In this document: in pieces, positions 3,844 through 25,708 of the stretch
How positions within the stretch are numbered: position 1 is the first letter of the stretch
How the letters are laid out: every line of letters begins with the position of its first letter
Origin: Nitrospirota bacterium
Lineage (GTDB): Bacteria > Nitrospirota > UBA9217
Length of the DNA stretch: 25,708 nt
Reading direction: 5' to 3'
Assembly (NCBI GenBank): GCA_029858565.1
Contig: JAOUEV010000049.1
Span: 1-25,708 of the forward strand
The notes under the pieces: model-generated
The model's input: only the letters and a program-made list of their open reading frames with translations
Databases searched by the model: none
What the model was told of the DNA's origin: nothing
Program-made: the position numbers and the translations under genes

Positions 3844-6015
3844 TTGAGAACCCTTGCCGACATAGCAGTTCCCGTCAATCTTCCCAAGACGTTCCACTAT
3901 TCCATTCCTCCGGAACTGGCCGGCGACCTTGTCGTGGGCTCGCGGGTCATTGTGCCGTTCGGCAGCAGGCGCGTCAGCGCAACGGTCACGGGATTTCCGG
4001 AAAAAGCCGGGACCGCGAAGCTTAAGTCCATCATCTCCATCGCCGGCCCGCCCCTGTCCCCGGACCTGATGAAGCTAGCGGCCTGGATGGCCGACTACTA
4101 CCTCCATCCCATCGGCATGGCAATCGAGACCATGGTGCCCCGGGCAGTGGAGGAGGTGCGGCCGAAGCGGGTCCGCATGCTGCGGATGCTCGACGGCGAT
4201 CATGACATGGACGCGATCCGGGGGCCGAAGCAGACGGCGCTCTTTCTGCTCATGAGCGAGCGTCTGACGGTTCCCTTTTCCGAGCTGGGGAAGTTCGCGC
4301 CATCCACGATCAAGGCGCTCTGTTCCGCGGGGATGCTGGAGATATTCGAGAAGGACGAGGAGCCTGCCGCGGAGAACCAGTCGTTCACGCCTGACGCGCA
4401 GCCCGAACTGATGCCCGAACAGGCCGCCGCGGTGTCAACGATAGGCGAAGCAGTCGCGCGCGGGGCATTCGAGACCTTTCTGCTGCACGGCGTCACCGGC
4501 AGCGGCAAGACCGAGGTCTACCTCCGCTGCATCGGAGCGCTTGCCGGCACGGGCAAAGGCGCCATCGTGCTGGTGCCCGAGATCGCGCTCACCCCGCAGC
4601 TCCTGAACAGGTTCCGAAAACGCTTCGGCTCGCGGATCGCCATGCTCCACAGCGGCATGACCGACCGCGAGCGGGCTGATGAATACCGCCGCATCAGGGA
4701 AGGGTCCGTGGATGTGGCGATAGGCGCACGGTCCGCGGTGTTCGCGCCGTTCCCGGACCTGGGGCTCCTGGTGGTCGACGAGGAGCACGAGAACTCCTAC
4801 AAGCAGGACGAGGGGCTCCGGTACCACGGACGGGATGTTGCCGTGATGCGGGCCAAGCTCCGGAATGCCGTGTGCGTGCTCGGCTCCGCGACCCCGTCGC
4901 TCGAAAGTTCCTATAACGCCCGGTCCGGCAAGTACCGCTATCTGCGCATCGAGAAGCGCGTTGACCACCGCCCCATGCCGACTGTCGAGATCCTGGACAT
5001 GAAGACATCGCCAAAAGCATCCCTGTTCTCGCCCAAGCTCGCGGCGGAAGTGCAGGCCCGGCTTGACCGCAAGGAACAGGCGCTGCTGCTCCTGAACCGG
5101 CGGGGGTTCTCGTCGGTCCTGATCTGCGGGGACTGCGGCAGATCGCTGCCCTGTCCGTCCTGCAGCGTGTCGCTGACGTTCCACAAGAACGTGCGCAAGC
5201 TCAAGTGCCATTACTGCGACCATCAGGCCGAGCCGCCGGAGACCTGTCCGAACTGCGGCGGCGCGGACCTGAAGCCGCTCGGCGCGGGCACGCAGAAGAT
5301 CGAAGAAGAGGTCGCGAAGGCCTTTTCATCGAGCCGCATCGAGCGCATGGACAGCGACAGCATTCGCGGCAGGCATGCCTACGATGAACTGCTCGGCAGG
5401 GTGGACCGGTGCGAGGTGGATATCCTGCTCGGCACGCAGATGATCGCCAAGGGACATGACTTTCCGGCTGTCACGCTCGTGGGCGTGGTGGACGCGGACG
5501 TGGGTTTGAACCTGCCCGACTTCCGCTCATCGGAAAAGACCTTTCAGCTCATCACCCAGGCAGCAGGCAGGGCAGGGCGGGGCGATACAGCAGGCGAGGT
5601 GATCATCCAGACCCTGAACCCGAACCACTATGCCCTGCGCCACAGCAGGACCCATGATTACGACGGGTTCTATGACGAGGAGATCAGGTTCCGCGAGGAG
5701 CTGGGGTATCCGCCCTTCGGCAGGATGATCAAGATCGAGGTGAAGGCTGCGCGGGAAAATCTTGCCCTGGATGCCGCCATGACCGGCCGGGACCGCATCC
5801 GGCGGCTGCTGAAAGGCAAAGAGACAATCCTGCTCGGCCCTGCTCCGTCGCCGATCGCCAAGGTCCGCGGCAAGTTCCGTTTCCAGATGCTGCTGCTGTC
5901 AAAACGGCGGGACCTGATCCACAGCCTGGCGATCGAAGCGCGCAAAACAGTGGAGGAGAAGTTCGGCAAGAAGGTACAGGTGCTCGTGGATGTGGACCCG
6001 GTGAATTTGATGTGA
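3844..6015 (+). CDS. priA: Primosomal protein N' (replication restart helicase)
   Basis: LLHGVTGSGKTEVY, LVPEIALTPQ, DEEHE, GSATPSLES, four CxxC pairs, GTQMIAKGHDFP, QAAGRAGR and terminal DVDP. The TTG start is uncertain. Confidence 0.97.
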   Translation: MRTLADIAVPVNLPKTFHYSIPPELAGDLVVGSRVIVPFGSRRVSATVTGFPEKAGTAKLKSIISIAGPPLSPDLMKLAAWMADYYLHPIGMAIETMVPRAVEEVRPKRVRMLRMLDGDHDMDAIRGPKQTALFLLMSERLTVPFSELGKFAPSTIKALCSAGMLEIFEKDEEPAAENQSFTPDAQPELMPEQAAAVSTIGEAVARGAFETFLLHGVTGSGKTEVYLRCIGALAGTGKGAIVLVPEIALTPQLLNRFRKRFGSRIAMLHSGMTDRERADEYRRIREGSVDVAIGARSAVFAPFPDLGLLVVDEEHENSYKQDEGLRYHGRDVAVMRAKLRNAVCVLGSATPSLESSYNARSGKYRYLRIEKRVDHRPMPTVEILDMKTSPKASLFSPKLAAEVQARLDRKEQALLLLNRRGFSSVLICGDCGRSLPCPSCSVSLTFHKNVRKLKCHYCDHQAEPPETCPNCGGADLKPLGAGTQKIEEEVAKAFSSSRIERMDSDSIRGRHAYDELLGRVDRCEVDILLGTQMIAKGHDFPAVTLVGVVDADVGLNLPDFRSSEKTFQLITQAAGRAGRGDTAGEVIIQTLNPNHYALRHSRTHDYDGFYDEEIRFREELGYPPFGRMIKIEVKAARENLALDAAMTGRDRIRRLLKGKETILLGPAPSPIAKVRGKFRFQMLLLSKRRDLIHSLAIEARKTVEEKFGKKVQVLVDVDPVNLM

Positions 6016-18808: not shown

Positions 18809-18917
18809 CCACGGAAGCTGCGGATGCACATCCTGATCAACACGGATAGGTGTGAAAGAAAGAAGTGTTAGTGTTCTGAAACCAGTCCTTGCGACGAACC
18901 TGGCGTTTCCTGCCTTT

Positions 18918-18946
18918 CTTCGTGGCTTCGTGACTTCGTGCGAGAC
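18918..18946. repeat. Three 8-bp tandem units CTTCGTGN between convergent genes
   Basis: CTTCGTGG-CTTCGTGA-CTTCGTGC-GAGAC; degenerate CACGGA/CGGAT units at 18810-18847. Confidence 0.55.
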
Positions 18947-18973
18947 AGGTTCTCTGGTCTTTGGATCGATCTG

Positions 18974-19903
18974 CTAATAATCGTACCTCAATCCTACACT
19001 ATAGACGTTGTTGGTCGTGGCCGTATCGGGAACGTTCGAATCAGCCATTTCGTGATCATAACCAAGAGAGAAGCTCCAGGAGTCGCTCAGGTCCACGCCA
19101 AAGAAGACCGACACGGTCTGGGTGGTGACGGTGAAGTCCACGGGCAGATCGTACGTGCGCGACAGATAGCCGTAGCCCAGGTCCAGGGACGTGTTCTCCG
19201 AGGGCGAGAACCCGATCCAGGCGGTTCCGGAATGCCCATAATAGCTGTAGAGCGGAGAGTCAGCCCGGTTCCGTTCGAACTCATAGGTCTGCTTGAACCA
19301 GATGCTGTCGCTCACCGTTTCCTTGAGTCCTGCCGACGCGCCAAAGGCGGTTGAATCCCGGAGGTCGGACTTGAAATCCTTTGCCGCTGCCTTGAGCGAG
19401 CATCTTCCTGACAGGAGCTCGGTGAATCGCCTGGTAATCCCGGCGCTCAGAGAGCCCACGGTGAAGTCGAATTCATCATAGGTCGCGAATGAAGTGTGCG
19501 ATACAGCGCCAAGCACAAGGATGTCGGTCTTCTCGCCCCAGGATATCTTGCTCCCGATGTCAGCGGAGAGCGAGGTCGAGAAATCGCCCTGCTGCTCGGT
19601 CTGGCTGCTGGTGGTCCCGGTGCCGGTACCTGTGCTTGTCCCAGTCCCTCCGGGATTGTCATTCAACCCGCCCTGCTGCGCCTGCAGGATAGACATTCCC
19701 CCGGCCATGCCGCCCATACCTCCACCTCCGCTGGTCCCGCCGGTGTTCGGATTGTCCTGCACCAGACCGATGACATTATCATTGTATGATTCCTGCACAT
19801 CAAAAGAAAAGACCAGTCCGGCCTCGGCGCTTGAATAGGTGAACAGCAACAATGTCACAGCGGCGATGAGCATCAGGGTGCCGGATTTTGTAAGTTCTCG
19901 CAT
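18974..19903 (-). CDS. Predicted outer-membrane beta-barrel protein with Gly/Thr-rich insertion
   Basis: Signal peptide ending SAEA; amphipathic strands with alternating aromatic residues; terminal VGLRYDY beta-signal-like end; GGGGAG SD. Confidence 0.75.
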   Translation of the reverse strand: MRELTKSGTLMLIAAVTLLLFTYSSAEAGLVFSFDVQESYNDNVIGLVQDNPNTGGTSGGGGMGGMAGGMSILQAQQGGLNDNPGGTGTSTGTGTGTTSSQTEQQGDFSTSLSADIGSKISWGEKTDILVLGAVSHTSFATYDEFDFTVGSLSAGITRRFTELLSGRCSLKAAAKDFKSDLRDSTAFGASAGLKETVSDSIWFKQTYEFERNRADSPLYSYYGHSGTAWIGFSPSENTSLDLGYGYLSRTYDLPVDFTVTTQTVSVFFGVDLSDSWSFSLGYDHEMADSNVPDTATTNNVYSVGLRYDY

Positions 19904-19925
19904 GTCTTCTGCTCCCCGTAGGATG

Positions 19926-19964
19926 AGAATAAAGACCGGGCGTCCTCTGCAGCGGACACCCGGT
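19926..19964 (-). terminator. Hairpin / weak intrinsic terminator after the small secreted protein gene
   Basis: Minus strand ACCGGGTGTCC-gctgcaga-GGACGCCCGGT (11-bp stem with one G-U) followed by CTTTATTCT. Confidence 0.5.
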
Positions 19965-19980
19965 GAGCGTTACCGATAAC

Positions 19981-20304
19981 CTACTTGCCCGAGCGGGTCT
20001 GCGTGTCCCGGTGCTCCCGGTCCTGGGACCGCTCGTGCTTCTGGGTCTGCTTCTTGGTCTTTGATTTGACCTTCTTGCCGGATTTCTCCTGCTCCTGCTT
20101 TTTCGAGCCATCCTGCAGGCGGTCGCGGTCCCGCTCACGGGTCCGCTCCTGGGTCATTTCCTGGGTGCCTGCGGCCTTGCCGGTGCCCATCTTCTGCTCC
20201 TCGGTCTCCTTCTGTGTCTGCGTTTCGGCCGCACCCGCGGTAAATGTTGCCGGTCCGATAAGAAGCAGTGCTGCTGTCATAAGTGCCAGTCCCTTGCGTA
20301 GCAT
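19981..20304 (-). CDS. Small secreted, highly charged low-complexity protein (107 aa)
   Basis: GAGGAGG SD before ATG 20304; signal peptide MLRKGLALMTAALLLIGPATFTAGA; mature part rich in Q/E/K/R/T (TQERTRERDRDRLQDG). Confidence 0.75.
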   Translation of the reverse strand: MLRKGLALMTAALLLIGPATFTAGAAETQTQKETEEQKMGTGKAAGTQEMTQERTRERDRDRLQDGSKKQEQEKSGKKVKSKTKKQTQKHERSQDREHRDTQTRSGK

Positions 20305-20434
20305 AATGATCCCTCCTCTGTTGTCAATTGCCTTCGGGATGAGTCCCGAAGGGTGCGGGAGCGATTGGCCAGCACTCCCGCTGTGATCGTTCTGTCCGGA
20401 CGAGAACGGTTCTCTCAATATCCATTGTTCGTTA

Positions 20435-20467
20435 CCCATAAGACGAATGAACCGGGAAAAGGTTACA
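20435..20467 (-). promoter_or_regulatory. ECF-sigma-type promoter, copy 2 (TGTAAC-N16-CGTC)
   Basis: TGTAACCTTTTCCCGGTTCATTCGTCTTATGGG; 28/33 identical to the copy upstream of the sigma gene. Confidence 0.8.
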
Positions 20468-20476
20468 TCCATCCCT

Positions 20477-21364
20477 TTACTTTCCTCTGCCGCCGCGTAC
20501 GCTGTCACCGCGCCGCTCTGATCCGCCGTCCCGCGCGCCGCCCCTGCGATCGTCGCGTCGGTCCCTGCCGAGGTCGTCGTGCTGGGCCTTGGCCGCGTCT
20601 TCAGGGCTTTTTCCCCTGCGGATGCTGTCAGTGATCTGCTGCTGCATGCGATCAAAGTCCTTTTCCGAGTATCCCCGCGCCAGTCCCTGCTTGACCAGGC
20701 CCGCGGCGGAATCCGCCGGCACGCCGAACTCGACCAGGTCGGTGATCGCGCCTACTGCCCGGTCAAAGAGCACGAGCGATCCCTTCCGTTCAATGATCCT
20801 TCCGGCCGTATCGGAAACAGCGTCCGCTGGTATGGACCGCTCGTACGCACGGGCAACGGTCTCGACGGCAGTGTCCTTTACCGCGACGTTCCTGGCGGAG
20901 ACCCCTTTGCTGACCAGGTCATCCACGACTGGCCGGGCCGCGGCAAGATGTCCGACCAGGCGCTTGACCGCAGCAGCGATCCGCTCCTGGGGCACCTGTT
21001 TTGCCAGGCCCTGCTCGATCCTGCTCATGAGCGCTTTGACGGGCATGCTTTCGTTCTTCGCCTGCACTGCAAGGTCCAGCAGCCCGGTGATGCCGGCTGA
21101 GCCGACGTTCCGTTCAAGACCCCTGGCGACGACTGCCTCCACATCAGCGGCAGGGATGCCGGAACGGACCGCCTGCCGGGCATGGGCAGCGAGGAGGTCC
21201 TTTTCAGCAGGCGGCAGAGCAGAACGTTCGATAGCGCTGCGCGTTCCTTTTGTCAGGTCATCATCAACCGCTCCCGCAGGTCCGGCGCTCCCGAACAGAA
21301 CTGCTGCGAAAAGCGTAATAATGATGATCGCTTTCGATCGGTGGTTGGGATCAGGATATCTCAT
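20477..21364 (-). CDS. Exported alpha-helical repeat protein of unknown function
   Basis: Signal/TM segment; about four helical repeats of type (G/S)(I/V/M)P....L...GL.(R/K); R/D/G-rich tail; ATGA overlap with the anti-sigma stop. Confidence 0.8.
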   Translation of the reverse strand: MRYPDPNHRSKAIIIITLFAAVLFGSAGPAGAVDDDLTKGTRSAIERSALPPAEKDLLAAHARQAVRSGIPAADVEAVVARGLERNVGSAGITGLLDLAVQAKNESMPVKALMSRIEQGLAKQVPQERIAAAVKRLVGHLAAARPVVDDLVSKGVSARNVAVKDTAVETVARAYERSIPADAVSDTAGRIIERKGSLVLFDRAVGAITDLVEFGVPADSAAGLVKQGLARGYSEKDFDRMQQQITDSIRRGKSPEDAAKAQHDDLGRDRRDDRRGGARDGGSERRGDSVRGGRGK

Positions 21365-21969
21365 ATTTTTACCCTCACGACAGCATTGCGGTTGCCGAAT
21401 CCGTCGTCGCGGTATGCTTCCGCGCGCGGGTCAGTGATCCACTGCTCGCTGTCCACAATGAACATATAGGCGTACACGCCGGGCTGCAGCGGCAGTTCAA
21501 TGGTCCAGGTCCCGTTCTTCCGGGTCATCACATGGGTCCCGGTGCTCCACTTGTTGAAATCCCCTGCCACAGCAACCTGACGGGCGTTTGGCGCCTGAAG
21601 GTCCAGCCGGACGATCACCGTGTCCGGCCGTCTCGACGTGACCATCACGGCCGCGACAATGGCGAAGAGCAGTACCGCCGCGGCTGATGCAAGGTTCCAG
21701 CGAAGCACCCTGCTGCCGAAGAGGAACTCCTTCGCCCGCGCGAAAAAGGGCGCTCTTTTGCGCGGAAGCCTTGCCATGACCGACCGGGTGAAATCAGCGG
21801 GCGGTTCTTTTCTTCCTGCGCGGCCGAGGGTTCCCAGCGCCTCGTTCATGGCCTGATATTCACGGCTCAGGACCGGGTCCGCCTGGACCTGGCGCAGAAG
21901 CCGCTCCCGCTCCCCATCAGGAAGGTTCCCGTCGAGCAATCGGTGGATGATCGTAAGATCGTTCTTCAT
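21361..21969 (-). CDS. Putative anti-sigma factor: cytoplasmic anti-sigma domain, TM helix, CBM48/AMPK-type glycogen-binding domain
   Basis: LLDGNLPDGERERL and PPADFTRSVMARL (anti-sigma-like); TM LASAAAVLLFAIVAAVMV; VAVAGDFNKW...W...L.PG.Y.YMFIVD...WITDP...DDGFG.RN. ATGA-coupled to the sigma gene. Confidence 0.88.
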   Translation of the reverse strand: MKNDLTIIHRLLDGNLPDGERERLLRQVQADPVLSREYQAMNEALGTLGRAGRKEPPADFTRSVMARLPRKRAPFFARAKEFLFGSRVLRWNLASAAAVLLFAIVAAVMVTSRRPDTVIVRLDLQAPNARQVAVAGDFNKWSTGTHVMTRKNGTWTIELPLQPGVYAYMFIVDSEQWITDPRAEAYRDDGFGNRNAVVRVKI

Positions 21970-22526
21970 GGCCTGACTCCCTGCTTGTCCAACACTTCCC
22001 TGAGCCGCTCCCTGGCCCGGTGCGCCCTGACCTTGAGCGCCGCGATGCTGACGCCCAGGATCGCGGCGATCTCCTCGTATCCCAGCTCCTCAAGGTGTTT
22101 CAGGATCAGCACCTCGCGGTATTCAGGCGAAAGTCCGTCGAGAGCGTGCTGAACCGCCTCGCTGGTCTCATGAGAAGACGCGATCCGCTCCGGATCGGGA
22201 GCGGAGCTGCCCCTCAGCTCGGCAATATCGTCAACATCCACGGTCTCCCTGCGGGCCCGGCCATGGTCGCGGCACTTATTCAGCACGATGGTCGCGAGCC
22301 ACGTCGAGAACTTCGCGGTACCGCGAAACCGGTTGAGGCCTTCGTAGGCGGCGATAAAGCTGTCCTGGGCTATGTCGTTCGCGCTGTCGGCGTCGCCGGT
22401 CATACGGAACGCCAGGGTGTACGCCAGGACCTTGTACCGGTCCACAAGGACCGCGTAGGCATCCTCATCACCTTTCAGCGTGCGTTCGATCAGGTCGTTC
22501 TCTTCCTGGTGTCTGGTCTCATCCAT
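21966..22526 (-). CDS. ECF (sigma70 group 4) RNA polymerase sigma factor
   Basis: GDEDAYAVLVDRY, DIAQDSFI.AY..L..F, FSTWL.TI..N.CRD (region 2); L....REVLILK..E.L.YEEIA.ILG.S...K.R.HRAR (region 4). Alternative start at 22538. Confidence 0.95.
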   Translation of the reverse strand: MDETRHQEENDLIERTLKGDEDAYAVLVDRYKVLAYTLAFRMTGDADSANDIAQDSFIAAYEGLNRFRGTAKFSTWLATIVLNKCRDHGRARRETVDVDDIAELRGSSAPDPERIASSHETSEAVQHALDGLSPEYREVLILKHLEELGYEEIAAILGVSIAALKVRAHRARERLREVLDKQGVRP

Positions 22527-22533
22527 GTTGTTG

Positions 22534-22566
22534 CCCATAAGACGGTTGAACGCGAAAAAGGTTACA
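22534..22566 (-). promoter_or_regulatory. ECF-sigma-type promoter, copy 1 (autoregulatory; TGTAAC-N16-CGTC)
   Basis: TGTAACCTTTTTCGCGTTCAACCGTCTTATGGG directly upstream of the sigma gene; AAC in the -35 and CGTC in the -10 are typical ECF elements. Confidence 0.8.
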
Positions 22567-22573
22567 CCGGCCG

Positions 22574-22921
22574 CTACTCAGTTCCGACCAGGACCACCGA
22601 GTTCCTTCCGCCCAGACCGTCCTCAACCGAGGGAGCGCGGGGATCGACTATCCAATCTGCAGTGTTGACCAGGAACAGGTATTCGTATCTGCCCGGCATA
22701 AGGAACAGCGTGATCGTCCAGGAACCGCTCCGGTCCGGACCCGCAAGTACATGGCTCGTGGGGTCCCACTTGTTAAAGGAACCGGCGACGGTGACAGAAA
22801 CGGCATCGGGTGCTGACAAGGTGAATGTGATTGGTACGGCACGGGCGGTTTCCGCTGCCGGTGCGGTCTTGCCAGAAAGGGCTGCAGCAAAGAACAGGAC
22901 TATGGCGAGCAGACGGATCAT
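22574..22921 (-). CDS. Secreted stand-alone CBM48/AMPK-type glycogen-binding domain protein
   Basis: Signal peptide MIRLLAIVLFFAAALS; APDA.SVTVAGSFNKW, W...L.L.PGRYEYLFLV...W..DP, EDGLGGRNS. Confidence 0.88.
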   Translation of the reverse strand: MIRLLAIVLFFAAALSGKTAPAAETARAVPITFTLSAPDAVSVTVAGSFNKWDPTSHVLAGPDRSGSWTITLFLMPGRYEYLFLVNTADWIVDPRAPSVEDGLGGRNSVVLVGTE

Positions 22922-22951
22922 GGCGGTCTCGAAGGGCTCCCTGTACAGCGG

Positions 22952-22997
22952 AAAAAATAAAAAAGGACCACCAATTGCACGAATGCAACTGATGGCC
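22952..22997 (-). terminator. Intrinsic terminator
   Basis: Minus strand GGCCATCAGTTGCA-TTCG-TGCAATTGGTGGTC (14-bp stem with G-U pairs, UUCG loop) followed by CTTTTTTATTTTTT. Confidence 0.75.
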
Positions 22998-23068
22998 TCC
23001 TGATAAATTATAGGATGCTAATGCTAGTATACTATAGGAAATGAAGCACTGCTGTGCCAGAGCGCATT

Positions 23069-23623
23069 TTACTGCGCGGCAGGGCCCCGGGACATGGGTT
23101 TCCCTTCGCCGGAGAGATCCGGATGTTTTGGATGCCGCGGCGGCACTGCCGGTGCATTGGCGGCATTGTCGTGGTTCGCCGTAGGAACTTTTTTCATATC
23201 CCGCCGCGATTCATTATGTACCTTTTTGACCTGGCTCACACACTTGCCCAGTTTAATTCCGAGCTGATCCGCGATGACGCCCCAGCCGAGCACGGGCGGA
23301 CCCTGACGAAGCGCCACTACCCGTCCGATGTTCTCTTCCGTGGCCCCGCCGGCAAGGGACTGCGCGCAGGAGAGGGTGACTGTGATCTCACCATAGCCAA
23401 GTCCTTTCTCGCGCAGCGACGCGATCCGATCGTTGCTGATGGCGAAATCGCGGTTCAGTCGCGACACCACGGCTTTTTCACCTTCCGGCGTGGCCGCAGC
23501 CCGGTCGAGCCGCGCAGCTTCGCGCTGCAGGTTCTGCTCATGCTTTGACGGGGCGGCGAATGCCGTGCCAGCGGATGCAAGGAGCGAAAGACACAGGACC
23601 AGGACGACCGGACGCATGTTCAT
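23069..23623 (-). CDS. Secreted hypothetical protein with duplicated LR..G.G(Y/W)G.I motif
   Basis: GGAGGAGG SD before ATG 23623; signal peptide ending AFA; SLREKGLGYGEI and ALRQGPPVLGWGVIADQLG. Confidence 0.78.
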   Translation of the reverse strand: MNMRPVVLVLCLSLLASAGTAFAAPSKHEQNLQREAARLDRAAATPEGEKAVVSRLNRDFAISNDRIASLREKGLGYGEITVTLSCAQSLAGGATEENIGRVVALRQGPPVLGWGVIADQLGIKLGKCVSQVKKVHNESRRDMKKVPTANHDNAANAPAVPPRHPKHPDLSGEGKPMSRGPAAQ

Positions 23624-23727
23624 CGAAACCTCCTCCTTTTCCAGCCGTTCACGAGGACCGGAGAACGCATGGCAGTATTGTAGCGAAGGCGAAAGGTTTT
23701 TTCCACAGTTTTCATGAGCGGGCCTGC

Positions 23728-23756
23728 TTGACACCGGGCACGGCCTTTGTTACTAT
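23728..23756 (+). promoter_or_regulatory. sigma70 promoter for the riboswitch and P-type ATPase
   Basis: TTGACA (23728-23733), 17-bp spacer, TGnTACTAT (-10 at 23751-23756), immediately before the aptamer. Confidence 0.8.
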
Positions 23757-23763
23757 TGAACGC

Positions 23764-23863
23764 GTAAAGGGGAGTAGCACACTACAGTGCAGATCGTCAT
23801 CACGTCCCGCGAACGCGGGACCGGTCTCACTGGTCAGGAAGTCCTGATGCGCGAGACCTTTAC
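23764..23863 (+). ncRNA. yybP-ykoY (Mn2+-sensing) riboswitch aptamer
   Basis: GTAAAGG-GGAGTAGC ... CGTCATCAC ... hairpin TCCCGCGAACGCGGGA ... GCGAGA-CCTTTAC. P1 pairs 23764-23770 with 23857-23863. It precedes a P-type ATPase, a known context for this class. Confidence 0.88.
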
Positions 23864-23898
23864 CACGATGGTAGCTGTGCGTGGTAAAGGTTTTTTTT
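23856..23898 (+). terminator. Riboswitch expression-platform terminator
   Basis: ACCTTTACCACG (23856-23867) pairs with CGTGGTAAAGGT (23880-23891), followed by a T run to 23898; overlaps the 3' strand of P1. Confidence 0.88.
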
Positions 23899-23933
23899 CG
23901 TCCCGGACCATCATTCAGACCGGAGGTAGCTCA

Positions 23934-25708
23934 ATGACAAGCCAGGCCTGGCATTCTCTCGAATCATCAAAGATCGCGAAAGAACTGGAAACCGATCCCC
24001 ATAAGGGTCTAGCCAGGGATGAGGCTTCCCGGAGGCTGGCGCGCTTCGGCGCGAACGAGCTCACGAAGGAAGAGGGCATCTCGCCGCTCAAGCTGTTCTT
24101 CAATCAGTTCAAGAACCTGCTGGTCGTCATTCTGCTGGTCGCCATTGTACTGTCTGCGCTGGTAGGCGAGGTGGTGGATGCCGGGATCATCGCCGTGATC
24201 GTCATCTTTGTTGCGGTCCTGGGTTTCGTCCAGGAGTATCGCGCCGAGCGGGCGATCGAGGCGCTTCGACAGATGCTTTCCCCGACAATTACCGTGCTTC
24301 GGTCCGGACAGGAAGAGGAGGTCCCCTCCAAGGACCTGGTTCCCGGTGACGTGATGGTGCTCGAGGCGGGAGATAAAATCCCGGCGGACGGCAGGATCCT
24401 GGAGGAGCATTCTTTGCGGTGCGACGAAGCATCGTTGACCGGCGAGTCCGTGCCGGTCAGCAAGCACGCGGACGTTGTGGCCGCGAACGCGCCGCTCAAT
24501 GACCGGAAGAACATGGTGTTCACCGGTACGACCGTCACCTATGGCCGCGGCAAGGTCGTGGTCATTGCGACGGCCATGGAGACCGAACTCGGAAAGATCG
24601 CCCGGAATGTGACTGCAGTGGAAACGGAGCGGACGCCGCTGGAGAAACGGACCGAGGAGATCGGAAAATGGCTCGGGAATATCGCCATCGGCGTCTGCGT
24701 TCTCGTCGCCGGTATCAGCATCGGCCGCGAGTATTTCGTTCACGGAAGCGTGAGCCTGTCCTTCGTCGTGACGGTCGCCATGTTCGCGATTGCCCTCGCG
24801 GTTGCCGCGGTCCCCGAGGCCCTGGCGGCCATTGTCACCGGCGCGCTCGCCATCGGGATGCGGCAGATGGCGAAGCAGAACGCCCTTATCCGGAAGATGC
24901 CCGCGGTCGAGACGCTGGGCTGCACCACCGTGATCTGCACGGACAAGACCGGCACGCTCACCAAGGGCGAGATGACCGTGCGCAAGCTCTTCCTGGGAGG
25001 TGGATGGATCGACGTGAGCGGCGCGGGCTATGCGCCCGAGGGCGGGTTCCGATCGGGAAACGAGATCGTGCCGACCACCGGCAACCGGCTGCTCGAGGAA
25101 TTCCTGAAGCACGGGATCCTGTGCAACGATTCGGATCTTTACGAGCGGGAGGGCAAATGGCTGATCAAGGGAGATCCGACCGAAGGTGCGCTGGTGGTGG
25201 CTGCCACCAAGGCGGGCATGCGGGTGGCAGAGACGCGGCTTGAGAATCCCCGCGTCGAGGAACTGCCCTTCAGCTCCGAGCGAAAGCGGATGACGACCAT
25301 CCATGAACGGAGCGGGCAGCGCATTGCATCGGTCAAGGGCGCGCCGGAGCTGGTGCTGGAGCGGTGTTCCCATATACTGGACAACGGTTCCGCACGGCCG
25401 CTGGTCGAGGCGGATAGGACTGCCGTGCTTGCGGCGAACGAGGAAATGGCAAAGGGCGCGCTGCGCGTGCTCGCCGTGGCAACCCGCGAGCTTCCCGCGG
25501 GCATCTCCTATGAAGAGGATGCCGTGGAACAGGGGATGGTGTTCCTCGGACTCGCCGGCATGATGGACCCGCCCCGTGCCGAGGCGATCGAGGCGATCCG
25601 CGTCTGCCGCCAGGTGCATATCCGTCCGGTGATGATCACCGGGGACCACAAGCTGACCGCGGTCGCAGTGGCGCGGGAAATGGGGATCTACCGCGAGGGC
25701 GACCGGGT
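23934..25708 (+). CDS. Cation-transporting P-type ATPase, P2A/Ca2+(Mn2+)-type (3'-truncated by window edge)
   Basis: Absent from the ORF track (no stop in window). GGAGG SD; MTSQAWHSL...GL...EA.RRL..FG.NEL, LTGES, VPEAL, DKTGTLT (24942), GDPTEGAL, KGAPE, DPPR, MITGD (25638), all in frame. Confidence 0.96.
   Translation, partial: MTSQAWHSLESSKIAKELETDPHKGLARDEASRRLARFGANELTKEEGISPLKLFFNQFKNLLVVILLVAIVLSALVGEVVDAGIIAVIVIFVAVLGFVQEYRAERAIEALRQMLSPTITVLRSGQEEEVPSKDLVPGDVMVLEAGDKIPADGRILEEHSLRCDEASLTGESVPVSKHADVVAANAPLNDRKNMVFTGTTVTYGRGKVVVIATAMETELGKIARNVTAVETERTPLEKRTEEIGKWLGNIAIGVCVLVAGISIGREYFVHGSVSLSFVVTVAMFAIALAVAAVPEALAAIVTGALAIGMRQMAKQNALIRKMPAVETLGCTTVICTDKTGTLTKGEMTVRKLFLGGGWIDVSGAGYAPEGGFRSGNEIVPTTGNRLLEEFLKHGILCNDSDLYEREGKWLIKGDPTEGALVVAATKAGMRVAETRLENPRVEELPFSSERKRMTTIHERSGQRIASVKGAPELVLERCSHILDNGSARPLVEADRTAVLAANEEMAKGALRVLAVATRELPAGISYEEDAVEQGMVFLGLAGMMDPPRAEAIEAIRVCRQVHIRPVMITGDHKLTAVAVAREMGIYREGDR

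Follow-up and report, generated by a model that had tools for sequence, protein, structure and literature searches.

A predicted autoregulatory extracytoplasmic function sigma factor promoter and its probable duplicate in a gene cluster of Nitrospirota

A stretch of DNA from a Nitrospirota bacterium of the lineage UBA9217 (assembly GCA_029858565.1, contig JAOUEV010000049.1, positions 1 to 25,708) contains a gene for a sigma factor of the extracytoplasmic function (ECF) type and, on the same strand, two near-identical sequences of 33 nucleotides (nt), here called P_A and P_B. This stretch, referred to below as the window, is the entire 25.7-kb contig C127 of a 3.9-Mb genome (G000) assembled in 144 contigs. 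Comparison of the two sequences with each other, with the remainder of the genome and with related loci suggests that both are very probably promoters recognised by an RNA polymerase holoenzyme that contains the ECF sigma factor of 22526-21966, and that P_B was duplicated from P_A. The sequences, their rarity, their conservation, their synteny and the duplication are matters of direct observation.

Gene order at the locus

The genes discussed here are all encoded by the minus strand. The row begins with up221 (23734-23069), which encodes a secreted protein of 221 amino acids (aa), followed by a gene for a secreted, stand-alone CBM48 protein of 115 aa (22574..22921; Pfam AMPK1_CBM, 3.4e-10). 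Seven nucleotides separate the stop codon of the CBM48 gene from P_A (22534..22566), the predicted autoregulatory ECF promoter. P_A lies directly 5' of an ECF sigma/anti-sigma gene pair, and its end is 8 nt from the ATG of the sigma gene.

The sigma gene (21966..22526) encodes 186 aa from the ATG at 22526. Its product matched the Pfam families Sigma70_r2 (7.8e-17), Sigma70_r4_2 (2.9e-17) and Sigma70_ECF (1.3e-5) and the NCBIfam sigma70-ECF superfamily model (108.6 bits, cutoff 42.9); above the NCBIfam cutoffs, its matches were to generic ECF models only. An alternative start proposed by the open reading frame (ORF) finder, the ATG at 22538, was rejected, as it lies inside the -10 region of P_A and is unconserved, many relatives having TAATAGG there. 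The start of the anti-sigma factor gene (21361..21969; 202 aa) overlaps the sigma stop. Its product consists of an N-terminal anti-sigma part, one hydrophobic span (read from the sequence) and a C-terminal CBM48/AMPK1_CBM domain (region 119-201), matched by Pfam AMPK1_CBM (1.5e-12, residues 128-201) and CBM_48 (3.1e-11). The NCBIfam 'antisigma' model NF052375 matched at 7.4e-15, under its cutoff.

Next in the row is the gene for a 295-aa secreted protein (20477..21364), the last gene ahead of P_B. This protein gave no family match in Pfam or NCBIfam, and homologues of its gene were found in 22 of 61 related genomes (20 of the 36 within the same family), always inside the cluster. P_B (20435..20467) begins 9 nt past the stop of the 295-aa gene. 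Downstream of it are a 33-codon upstream ORF (20324..20425, from translation), a gene for a small, secreted and highly charged protein of 107 aa (19981..20304), which would be the first gene served by P_B, a terminator-like hairpin (19935..19964) and a gene for a 309-aa outer-membrane beta-barrel protein (18974..19903).

Two near-identical candidate promoter sequences

P_A (TGTAACCTTTTTCGCGTTCAACCGTCTTATGGG, 22566-22534, minus strand) and P_B (TGTAACCTTTTCCCGGTTCATTCGTCTTATGGG, 20467-20435, minus strand) are identical at 28 of 33 positions, and the mismatches, at positions 12, 14, 15, 21 and 22, all fall in the spacer. In P_A, the -35 element TGTAACC (22566-22560) is followed by a T-tract (22559-22555) and by the -10 element CGTCTTAT (22544-22537). 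P_B carries TGTAACC at 20467-20461 and CGTCTTAT at 20445-20438. The gap between AAC and CGTC is 16 nt in both, which is the ECF layout, and the T run next to the -35 element reads CTTTTT in P_A and CTTTT in P_B.

A degenerate pattern of the 33-mer, searched with up to three mismatches, matched exactly two places in the window, compared with a mean of 0.00 in 100 dinucleotide shuffles. The shorter pattern GTAAC-N16-CGTC was found at the same two places only (shuffle mean 0.13; two occurrences were reached in 1 of 100 shuffles). In a repeat search of 18900-23100, the pair formed the longest direct repeat (37 nt, 84% identical, 2099 nt apart). Local alignment of the copies extends from TGTAAC to ATGGAT over 48 columns with two 1-nt gaps and ends there. 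Past the 33-mer, the flanks align no better than shuffled sequence (downstream 7.0 vs a mean of 7.9; upstream 7.0 vs 9.5). A larger duplication in this genome was also considered and rejected, since the repeat search returned nothing longer and the flanks beyond the 48-nt unit are at shuffled level. An earlier reading of the window from its letters alone (the sequence-only reading) had described two near-identical 33-mers whose similarity continues downstream. Both statements were borne out, the first by a recount of 28 of 33 positions with a chance expectation of about none and the second by the 48-column alignment to ATGGAT.

Conservation in related Nitrospirota

The cluster was taken from the 61 related genomes and from 20 further loci of named Nitrospirota metagenome-assembled genomes (MAGs). 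A recognisable motif was present upstream of the orthologous sigma gene, in sense orientation, in all 30 distinct Nitrospirota loci covering that region. In 29 of these it has the form AAC-N15-17-CGTC, and the thirtieth (L068) is one base off (TGTAACGTTTT...AGTCTTAT, with AGTCTTAT replacing CGTCTTAT). The motif scan of the genome and of homologous clusters that had been proposed as a check on the sequence-only reading gave this result together with three sites in the genome itself, described below.

Among 43 distinct sites from relatives, the spacing was N16 in 39 and N17 in 4. The consensus of the 39 distinct N16 sites is tGTAACcTTTTc.c...tc.ttCGTCTtATgggta.a, or tGTAACcTTTT-N11-CGTCTtAT in short form. 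In columns free of selection, CGTC is followed by T in 39/39 sites, by A two bases on in 39/39 and by a further T in 35/39. GTAAC is preceded by T in 28/39. The T-tract columns hold T in 38, 39, 39 and 35 of the 39 sites, a filter of at least three T in five having been applied at collection, and the mid-spacer columns carry 0.0-0.5 bit. The stricter pattern GTAACYTT-N12-14-CGTCTWAT was found at 31 sites in 18 of the 61 genomes, with 2 for the reversed control. All 18 genomes carry the 295-aa cluster gene, and sites were found in none of the 39 genomes without that gene. The canonical architecture, the position of P_A beside the sigma gene and the conservation before orthologous sigma genes argue for the earlier proposal that these are autoregulatory ECF promoters of the AAC/CGT type.

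In most relatives, counting from the first C of CGTC, the ATG of the sigma gene follows at 15-20 nt, and the interval lacks a ribosome-binding site (read by eye, and hence approximate). G001 and the G003/G007/G023 group are exceptions. Transcription at ECF promoters usually starts a few nucleotides beyond the -10 element. Given this placement and the short distance from CGTC to ATG, the leaders of the sigma mRNAs would be only about 5-10 nt long. Between the -10 element and the ATG, the sequence is conserved at sigma genes and not where relatives have the promoter before a target gene. P_B carries the version typical of sigma genes.

Sites in the genome and the predicted regulon

The bipartite pattern GTAACCTTTT-N11-CGTCTTATGG (20 positions) matched three sites in the genome without a mismatch; no site had 1-3 mismatches, two had 4 and 44 had 5. 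A matrix built from relatives only, applied to the 3.9-Mb genome, ranked the same three sites first (P_B 51.7, C11:303-333 41.7 and P_A 40.5 bits), with the next best at 14.4 bits. The third site, on contig C11 (303-333, minus strand), has a perfect motif, and an ATG follows 18 nt past the first C of its CGTC. The ORF behind it runs off the contig end, which overlaps the start of contig C103 by about 126 nt, and the frame continues there (L054:3-1550) as a 515-aa protein with GAF and GGDEF domains (Pfam GGDEF 3.8e-52, GAF_2 1.5e-27). The signature of this protein is AGDEF. The sigma factor may thus feed into cyclic di-GMP (c-di-GMP) signalling.

The predicted regulon comprises three transcription units, one of them non-local. 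The view of a local regulon defined by P_A and P_B was therefore right as to its two local sites and too narrow as a whole, given the third, equally good site on C11. A regulon of three promoters, for the sigma operon, an envelope pair and a protein of the c-di-GMP cyclase type, would result.

A tblastn search of the genome returned only two other ECF-like sigma factors, 37% and 29% identical. The latter (contig C18, ~22440-22480) has CAACCTTT-N12-GGTCTCAT upstream with an ATG close by; this arrangement has the layout of the window's sites, with other -35 and -10 words.

In relatives, extra motif sites precede genes for secreted proteins or lipoproteins. A secreted protein of about 170 aa with a WYRPY..W motif stands behind an extra site in G008, G014 and G018, a lipoprotein with GTAVKGP..GGTVTAY in G008, G028, G004 and G014, and other lipoproteins in G021 and G011. 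Divergent motif pairs or extra copies adjoin the cluster at L025/L042 (G008:C15:743126-743270) and at L064/L065 (~1840).

Origin of P_B

A second locus, L055 (JAAXXJ010000025.1), holds both P_A and P_B (2405-2434 and 4549-4578). Its copies align over 88 columns with 74 identities (84%), a length that takes in the promoter, the ATG and some 14 codons of the sigma gene. A tree of the anti-sigma factors places G000 with L055, G032 and G025 (support 99/98). Copies of the P_B type are confined to this one clade, namely G000, L055 and a derivative in G012 (contig C5). G032 lacks the promoter and has kept a homologous leader, and the contig of G025 ends short of the P_B junction. The leader after P_B in G000 aligns with those of L055, G012 and G032.

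Copying of P_B together with the first codons of the sigma gene would account for the extension of the similarity to ATGGAT. A single ancestral duplication, later shortened in G000 and lost in G032, is favoured by the comparison; independent duplications at one junction are a possible alternative history. The suggestion of a local duplication in the sequence-only reading is upheld by the 88-column copy in L055, the restriction to one clade and the homologous leaders.

The order in G012:C5 (L031) is up221, CBM48 gene, motif, a 45-codon sigma remnant, small gene and barrel gene. The sigma, anti-sigma and 295-aa genes are missing from this contig, and the motif still stands ahead of the small and barrel genes. 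In our comparison within the alignment, the G012:C5 promoter is a mosaic of the A and B copies of L055, which would fit deletion by recombination between direct repeats. G012 also has, on another contig, a paralogous second sigma cluster that shares this promoter consensus. The cluster offers a clean natural case of regulon growth, in which an autoregulatory promoter was duplicated with the 5' end of its gene, and relatives display later fates: the copy itself was lost in G032, and in G012 the regulator genes that the repeats had flanked were lost. The modest interest of the system lies in this evolutionary history.

Predicted output genes and leader of P_B

At the position of the small gene, relatives have analogous genes with a signal peptide and a charged, low-complexity product. 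G012:C5 provides the best comparative evidence that the operon of small and barrel genes is a target. The hairpin between these two genes (19964-19935) has 11 pairs, 8 of them G-C, and the tail CTTTATTCTC; it was also present in a separate fold. As read by eye, a stretch resembling a GC-rich hairpin with a T-run follows the small gene in several relatives.

The AlphaFold model of the barrel protein, based on 13 sequences, has a signal helix and 12 strands, with a mean predicted local distance difference test score (pLDDT) of 74.7 and about 90 in the strands. A loop at residues 45-103 is disordered and Gly/Met-rich. In Foldseek, OmpG ranked first (7e-9), ahead of KdgM/NanC and autotransporter barrels. 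Segments of Gly/Met-rich (GMGG-type) or charged low-complexity sequence are shared by the barrel loop (~19595-19771), the tails of 295-aa homologues and the small proteins, the latter two in L005, L006, L008, L015 and L017.

The 33-codon ORF opens with the ATGGAT that it has in common with the sigma gene and stops 6 nt ahead of the ribosome-binding site GAGGAGGG of the small gene; the stretch 20324..20425 is a sigma-derived remnant with a hairpin-rich leader. A contig from a strain about 96% identical (20152-21117) has no substitution in the 130 nt of the leader (20305-20434) and one in the 33 nt of P_B, in the spacer, compared with 29 in 641 nt (~4.5%) of the coding sequence of the 295-aa gene. 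Leader and P_B together (1/163) differ from this coding sequence (29/641) at a Fisher P of 0.018, which suggests that they are under purifying selection. The leader contains the hairpins CGTTCT..AGAACG and CCTTCGGGA..TCCCGAAGG, with counterparts in L055, G012 and G032. Its minimum free energy is unremarkable (z = -1.25), and the consensus fold of four sequences is shallow, with a covariation term of +0.44. Two further candidates in this region were rejected. A search for known RNA families in the region and leader returned, at E <= 1 in Rfam, only CcsR1 (23.4 bits, threshold 65.3) and a snoRNA, both sub-threshold. A sigma-70-like match at 20327-20300 was judged spurious, its -10 overlapping the start codon of the small gene.

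The ORFs of the P_B module measure 33 codons in G000, 46 in L055 and 45 in G012. In all three, they cross the hairpin-rich, conserved leader and stop at or just ahead of the ribosome-binding site of the small gene. A speculative extension, to which we give perhaps a modest chance of being right, is that the initiation module of the sigma gene was reused whole, with coupling through the upstream ORF and with repeats free to recombine, as in G012. Translation would then begin without a ribosome-binding site at a start codon some 5-10 nt from the predicted transcription start, and by translating the remnant, ribosomes could open up the leader, with coupling to the output gene. In G012, the output operon may have been left to the paralogous sigma cluster of the same promoter consensus.

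A model for the circuit and the points against it

In the preferred model, transcription would start at both P_A and P_B and would depend on this sigma factor. P_A would drive the sigma, anti-sigma and 295-aa genes, resulting in positive autoregulation. The membrane anti-sigma factor would restrain the sigma factor, with its periplasmic CBM48-like domain as the presumed sensor. P_B would act as an internal promoter of the same gene row that boosts the small charged secreted protein, and the barrel gene could be reached from P_B by read-through of the hairpin. The C11 copy (minus strand) would drive the GAF-GGDEF protein. Recognition would proceed through tGTAACc (-35), the T-tract and CGTCTtAT (-10 and following bases), with the mid-spacer free. 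P_B would have come from P_A and the first sigma codons, placed into the gap past the 295-aa gene in the ancestor of the G000/L055/G012/G032/G025 clade.

Several points weigh against this model or soften it. The related genomes are kin, and counts across them are non-independent. The sites in the relatives-only matrix were picked by GTAAC, CGTC and a T-rich filter, so that invariance in those columns is by construction, and the genome-wide bipartite patterns were drawn from this genome's own sites. Among 11 loci with the barrel gene after the 295-aa gene, a second motif occurs in the gap only in the window's own. In the other 10, the small and barrel genes have no promoter of this type to themselves, and the system would thus generally not require P_B. 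Some cross-recognition with the C18 sigma factor may also occur. Further, the hairpin between the small and barrel genes makes barrel output from P_B less certain than output of the small protein, which is probably the surest P_B product. The earlier statement that the output is the small protein plus the barrel accordingly stands for the small protein, and the barrel was confirmed as a 12-strand outer-membrane barrel in the structural model; its place as an output is weakened by the hairpin. Finally, the expression material consists of assembled contigs from three runs of one study, which cannot show 5' ends and may contain DNA, and one of these contigs (20152-21117) runs across P_B, so that read-through is at least as compatible with it as initiation there.

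With 95-99% identity to the window, the RNA-library contigs cover the genes for the sigma factor, the anti-sigma factor, the 295-aa protein and the small protein. They leave 22503-24000 and most of the barrel gene uncovered, and these gaps were not counted as evidence. Contig ends at 22502, 22495 and 20399, which would fall some 30-35 nt into the transcripts as predicted, were not counted either way, and neither was the higher word depth of the small-gene contig than of the 295-aa-gene contig in run X3.

Alternative explanations

The alternative that survives best is that only P_A works, P_B being a decaying by-product of the duplication, with the small and barrel genes transcribed by read-through from P_A as in most relatives. 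The 10 of 11 loci with no second motif between the 295-aa and barrel genes, the loss of the promoter with retention of the leader in G032 and the unbroken RNA-library contig across P_B would all fit it. However, the family matrix scores P_B above every other site in the genome (51.7 bits, against 40.5 for P_A). All differences between the copies lie in the spacer, with no change at any of the 20 positions of GTAACCTTTT and CGTCTTATGG. Against the related strain, P_B has accumulated one substitution in 33 nt, in the spacer, while the adjacent coding sequence differs by 4.5%, and in G012:C5 that element is the sole promoter of its type before the small and barrel genes. On balance, inactivity of P_B is considered unlikely.

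A second alternative arises from the spacer. The sequence-only reading had held that spacer conservation is higher than a promoter needs and had suggested a second binding factor. In its full form, a DNA- or RNA-binding factor marked by the spacer GTTCA and the downstream GGGYAAC..ATGGAT would co-regulate both transcripts. By our own count, the A and B copies within a genome are more alike (28/33 and 29/33) than copies compared between G000 and L055 (24/33 and 25/33), and the leader at 20305-20434 is invariant in comparison with the related strain, both of which such a factor would account for. The T-tract next to the -35 element is, however, a described element of ECF promoters, where it raises activity and modulates selectivity (Gaballa et al., 2018; PMC5758882), and it is family-wide here. 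Outside the T-tract, 6 of 11 spacer positions match. This has P = 0.038 against background composition and P = 0.22 with family column frequencies, an expected level of identity, and on these grounds the claim of excess conservation fails. GTTCA is missing from the C11 site, and the strain about 96% identical has GATCA for GTTCA in P_B (position 20451), so that the suggested factor is unnecessary. Conservation from the -10 element to the ATG before sigma genes is explained by the discriminator and the very short leader, the target promoters of relatives are without that stretch, and the cluster conserves no gene that would be a candidate for such a regulator. A second factor is therefore regarded as highly improbable.

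That recognition of the sites falls mainly to another sigma factor, such as the ECF-like protein of C18 with its upstream CAACCTTT-N12-GGTCTCAT, or that three dispersed copies form a small repeat family unrelated to transcription, is scarcely credible, given that all 18 genomes with the motif also have this sigma cluster and that the motif occurs in none of the 39 without the 295-aa gene, always stands directly 5' of the sigma gene in sense orientation, and, as regards a repeat, has no inverted repeats, no extended flank similarity and no Rfam match above threshold.

Comparison with known systems

The general mode of autoregulated ECF sigma/anti-sigma pairs has been described by Casas-Pastor and colleagues (2021), and the predicted circuit works alike. 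The closest group in their classification is ECF278 (Casas-Pastor et al., 2021, NAR), whose description includes a single-pass anti-sigma factor at position +1 with a periplasmic AMPK glycogen-recognition (CBM48-like) domain, an arrangement also present here. In contrast, the promoter predicted for subgroup ECF278s1 is GTGAC/GTATA and that found here is GTAAC/CGTCT, and the members named for ECF278 belong to Desulfovibrio, Syntrophobacter and Chloracidobacterium, whereas the loci described here are all from Nitrospirota MAGs. Since both promoter and taxa differ, the sigma factor was not filed under ECF278, the comparison being one of descriptions. Thirty-three non-Nitrospirota loci matched through the CBM48 domain only, with no related sigma gene adjoining.

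The sigmaW/X/M/V-type factors of Bacillus subtilis, as presented by Gaballa et al. (2018; PMC5758882), are similar in their xxAAC -35 and CGTA/CGTC -10 elements, in a T4-5 tract 3' of the -35 element and in autoregulation. The top named NCBIfam models for the sigma factor of the window include SigW, under cutoffs. The systems differ in the -35 word (TGAAAC in B. subtilis, GTAAC here) and in their anti-sigma types, and the host here is Gram-negative, with targets predicted among outer-membrane and periplasmic proteins. Similarly, the entry for Caulobacter crescentus SigF (ECF16) in the Casas-Pastor supplement gives the -35 word GTAACC, a CGT-type -10 element and self-induction. Its anti-sigma factor is a six-helix DUF1109 protein and its -10 word is CGTA; the likeness noted here concerns the promoter words.

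Near-identical promoters before unrelated genes, with rewiring of regulation, have been discussed as promoter reuse (Nijveen, Matus-Garcia and van Passel, 2012; PMC3575422), and here three copies stand before the sigma gene, the small-protein gene and the GAF-GGDEF gene. Unlike mobile promoters, the copies are accompanied by neither a mobile element nor inverted repeats, and their similarity ends with the 48-nt unit. Inclusion of part of the sigma coding sequence in the P_B copy argues for local segmental duplication.

The way in which ECF systems are known to work stays unchanged by these findings, the circuit being of an ordinary kind. The analysis provides a testable promoter consensus, tGTAACcTTTT-N11-CGTCTtAT, for an uncharacterised ECF sigma factor of uncultured Nitrospirota. 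It also bears on an anti-sigma architecture with a periplasmic CBM48-like domain that, according to the description of ECF278, had so far only been predicted in silico (Casas-Pastor et al., 2021). With three genome sites only, the sigma factor and its promoter are a candidate orthogonal pair for synthetic biology.

Neighbouring genes

The stand-alone CBM48 protein is 48% identical to the C-terminus of the anti-sigma factor (21361-21615), of which it is a paralogue, and its position ahead of P_A is kept in relatives. The protein may hence be a free-standing paralogue of the presumed sensor domain. The genome has a third CBM48 copy at C55:2673-2951. Two features of the minus strand, at 22966-22997 and 23031-23060, occupy the gap between up221 and the CBM48 gene: a hairpin that looks like a strong terminator (14 pairs, tail CTTTTTTATT) and a match to a sigma-70-like promoter. 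The CBM48 gene may have its own transcription, which would read through into P_A. The order of the cluster is shuffled within the family, a homologue of up221 being placed between the 295-aa and barrel genes in many relatives (L060, L062-L066, L074, L011 and L013).

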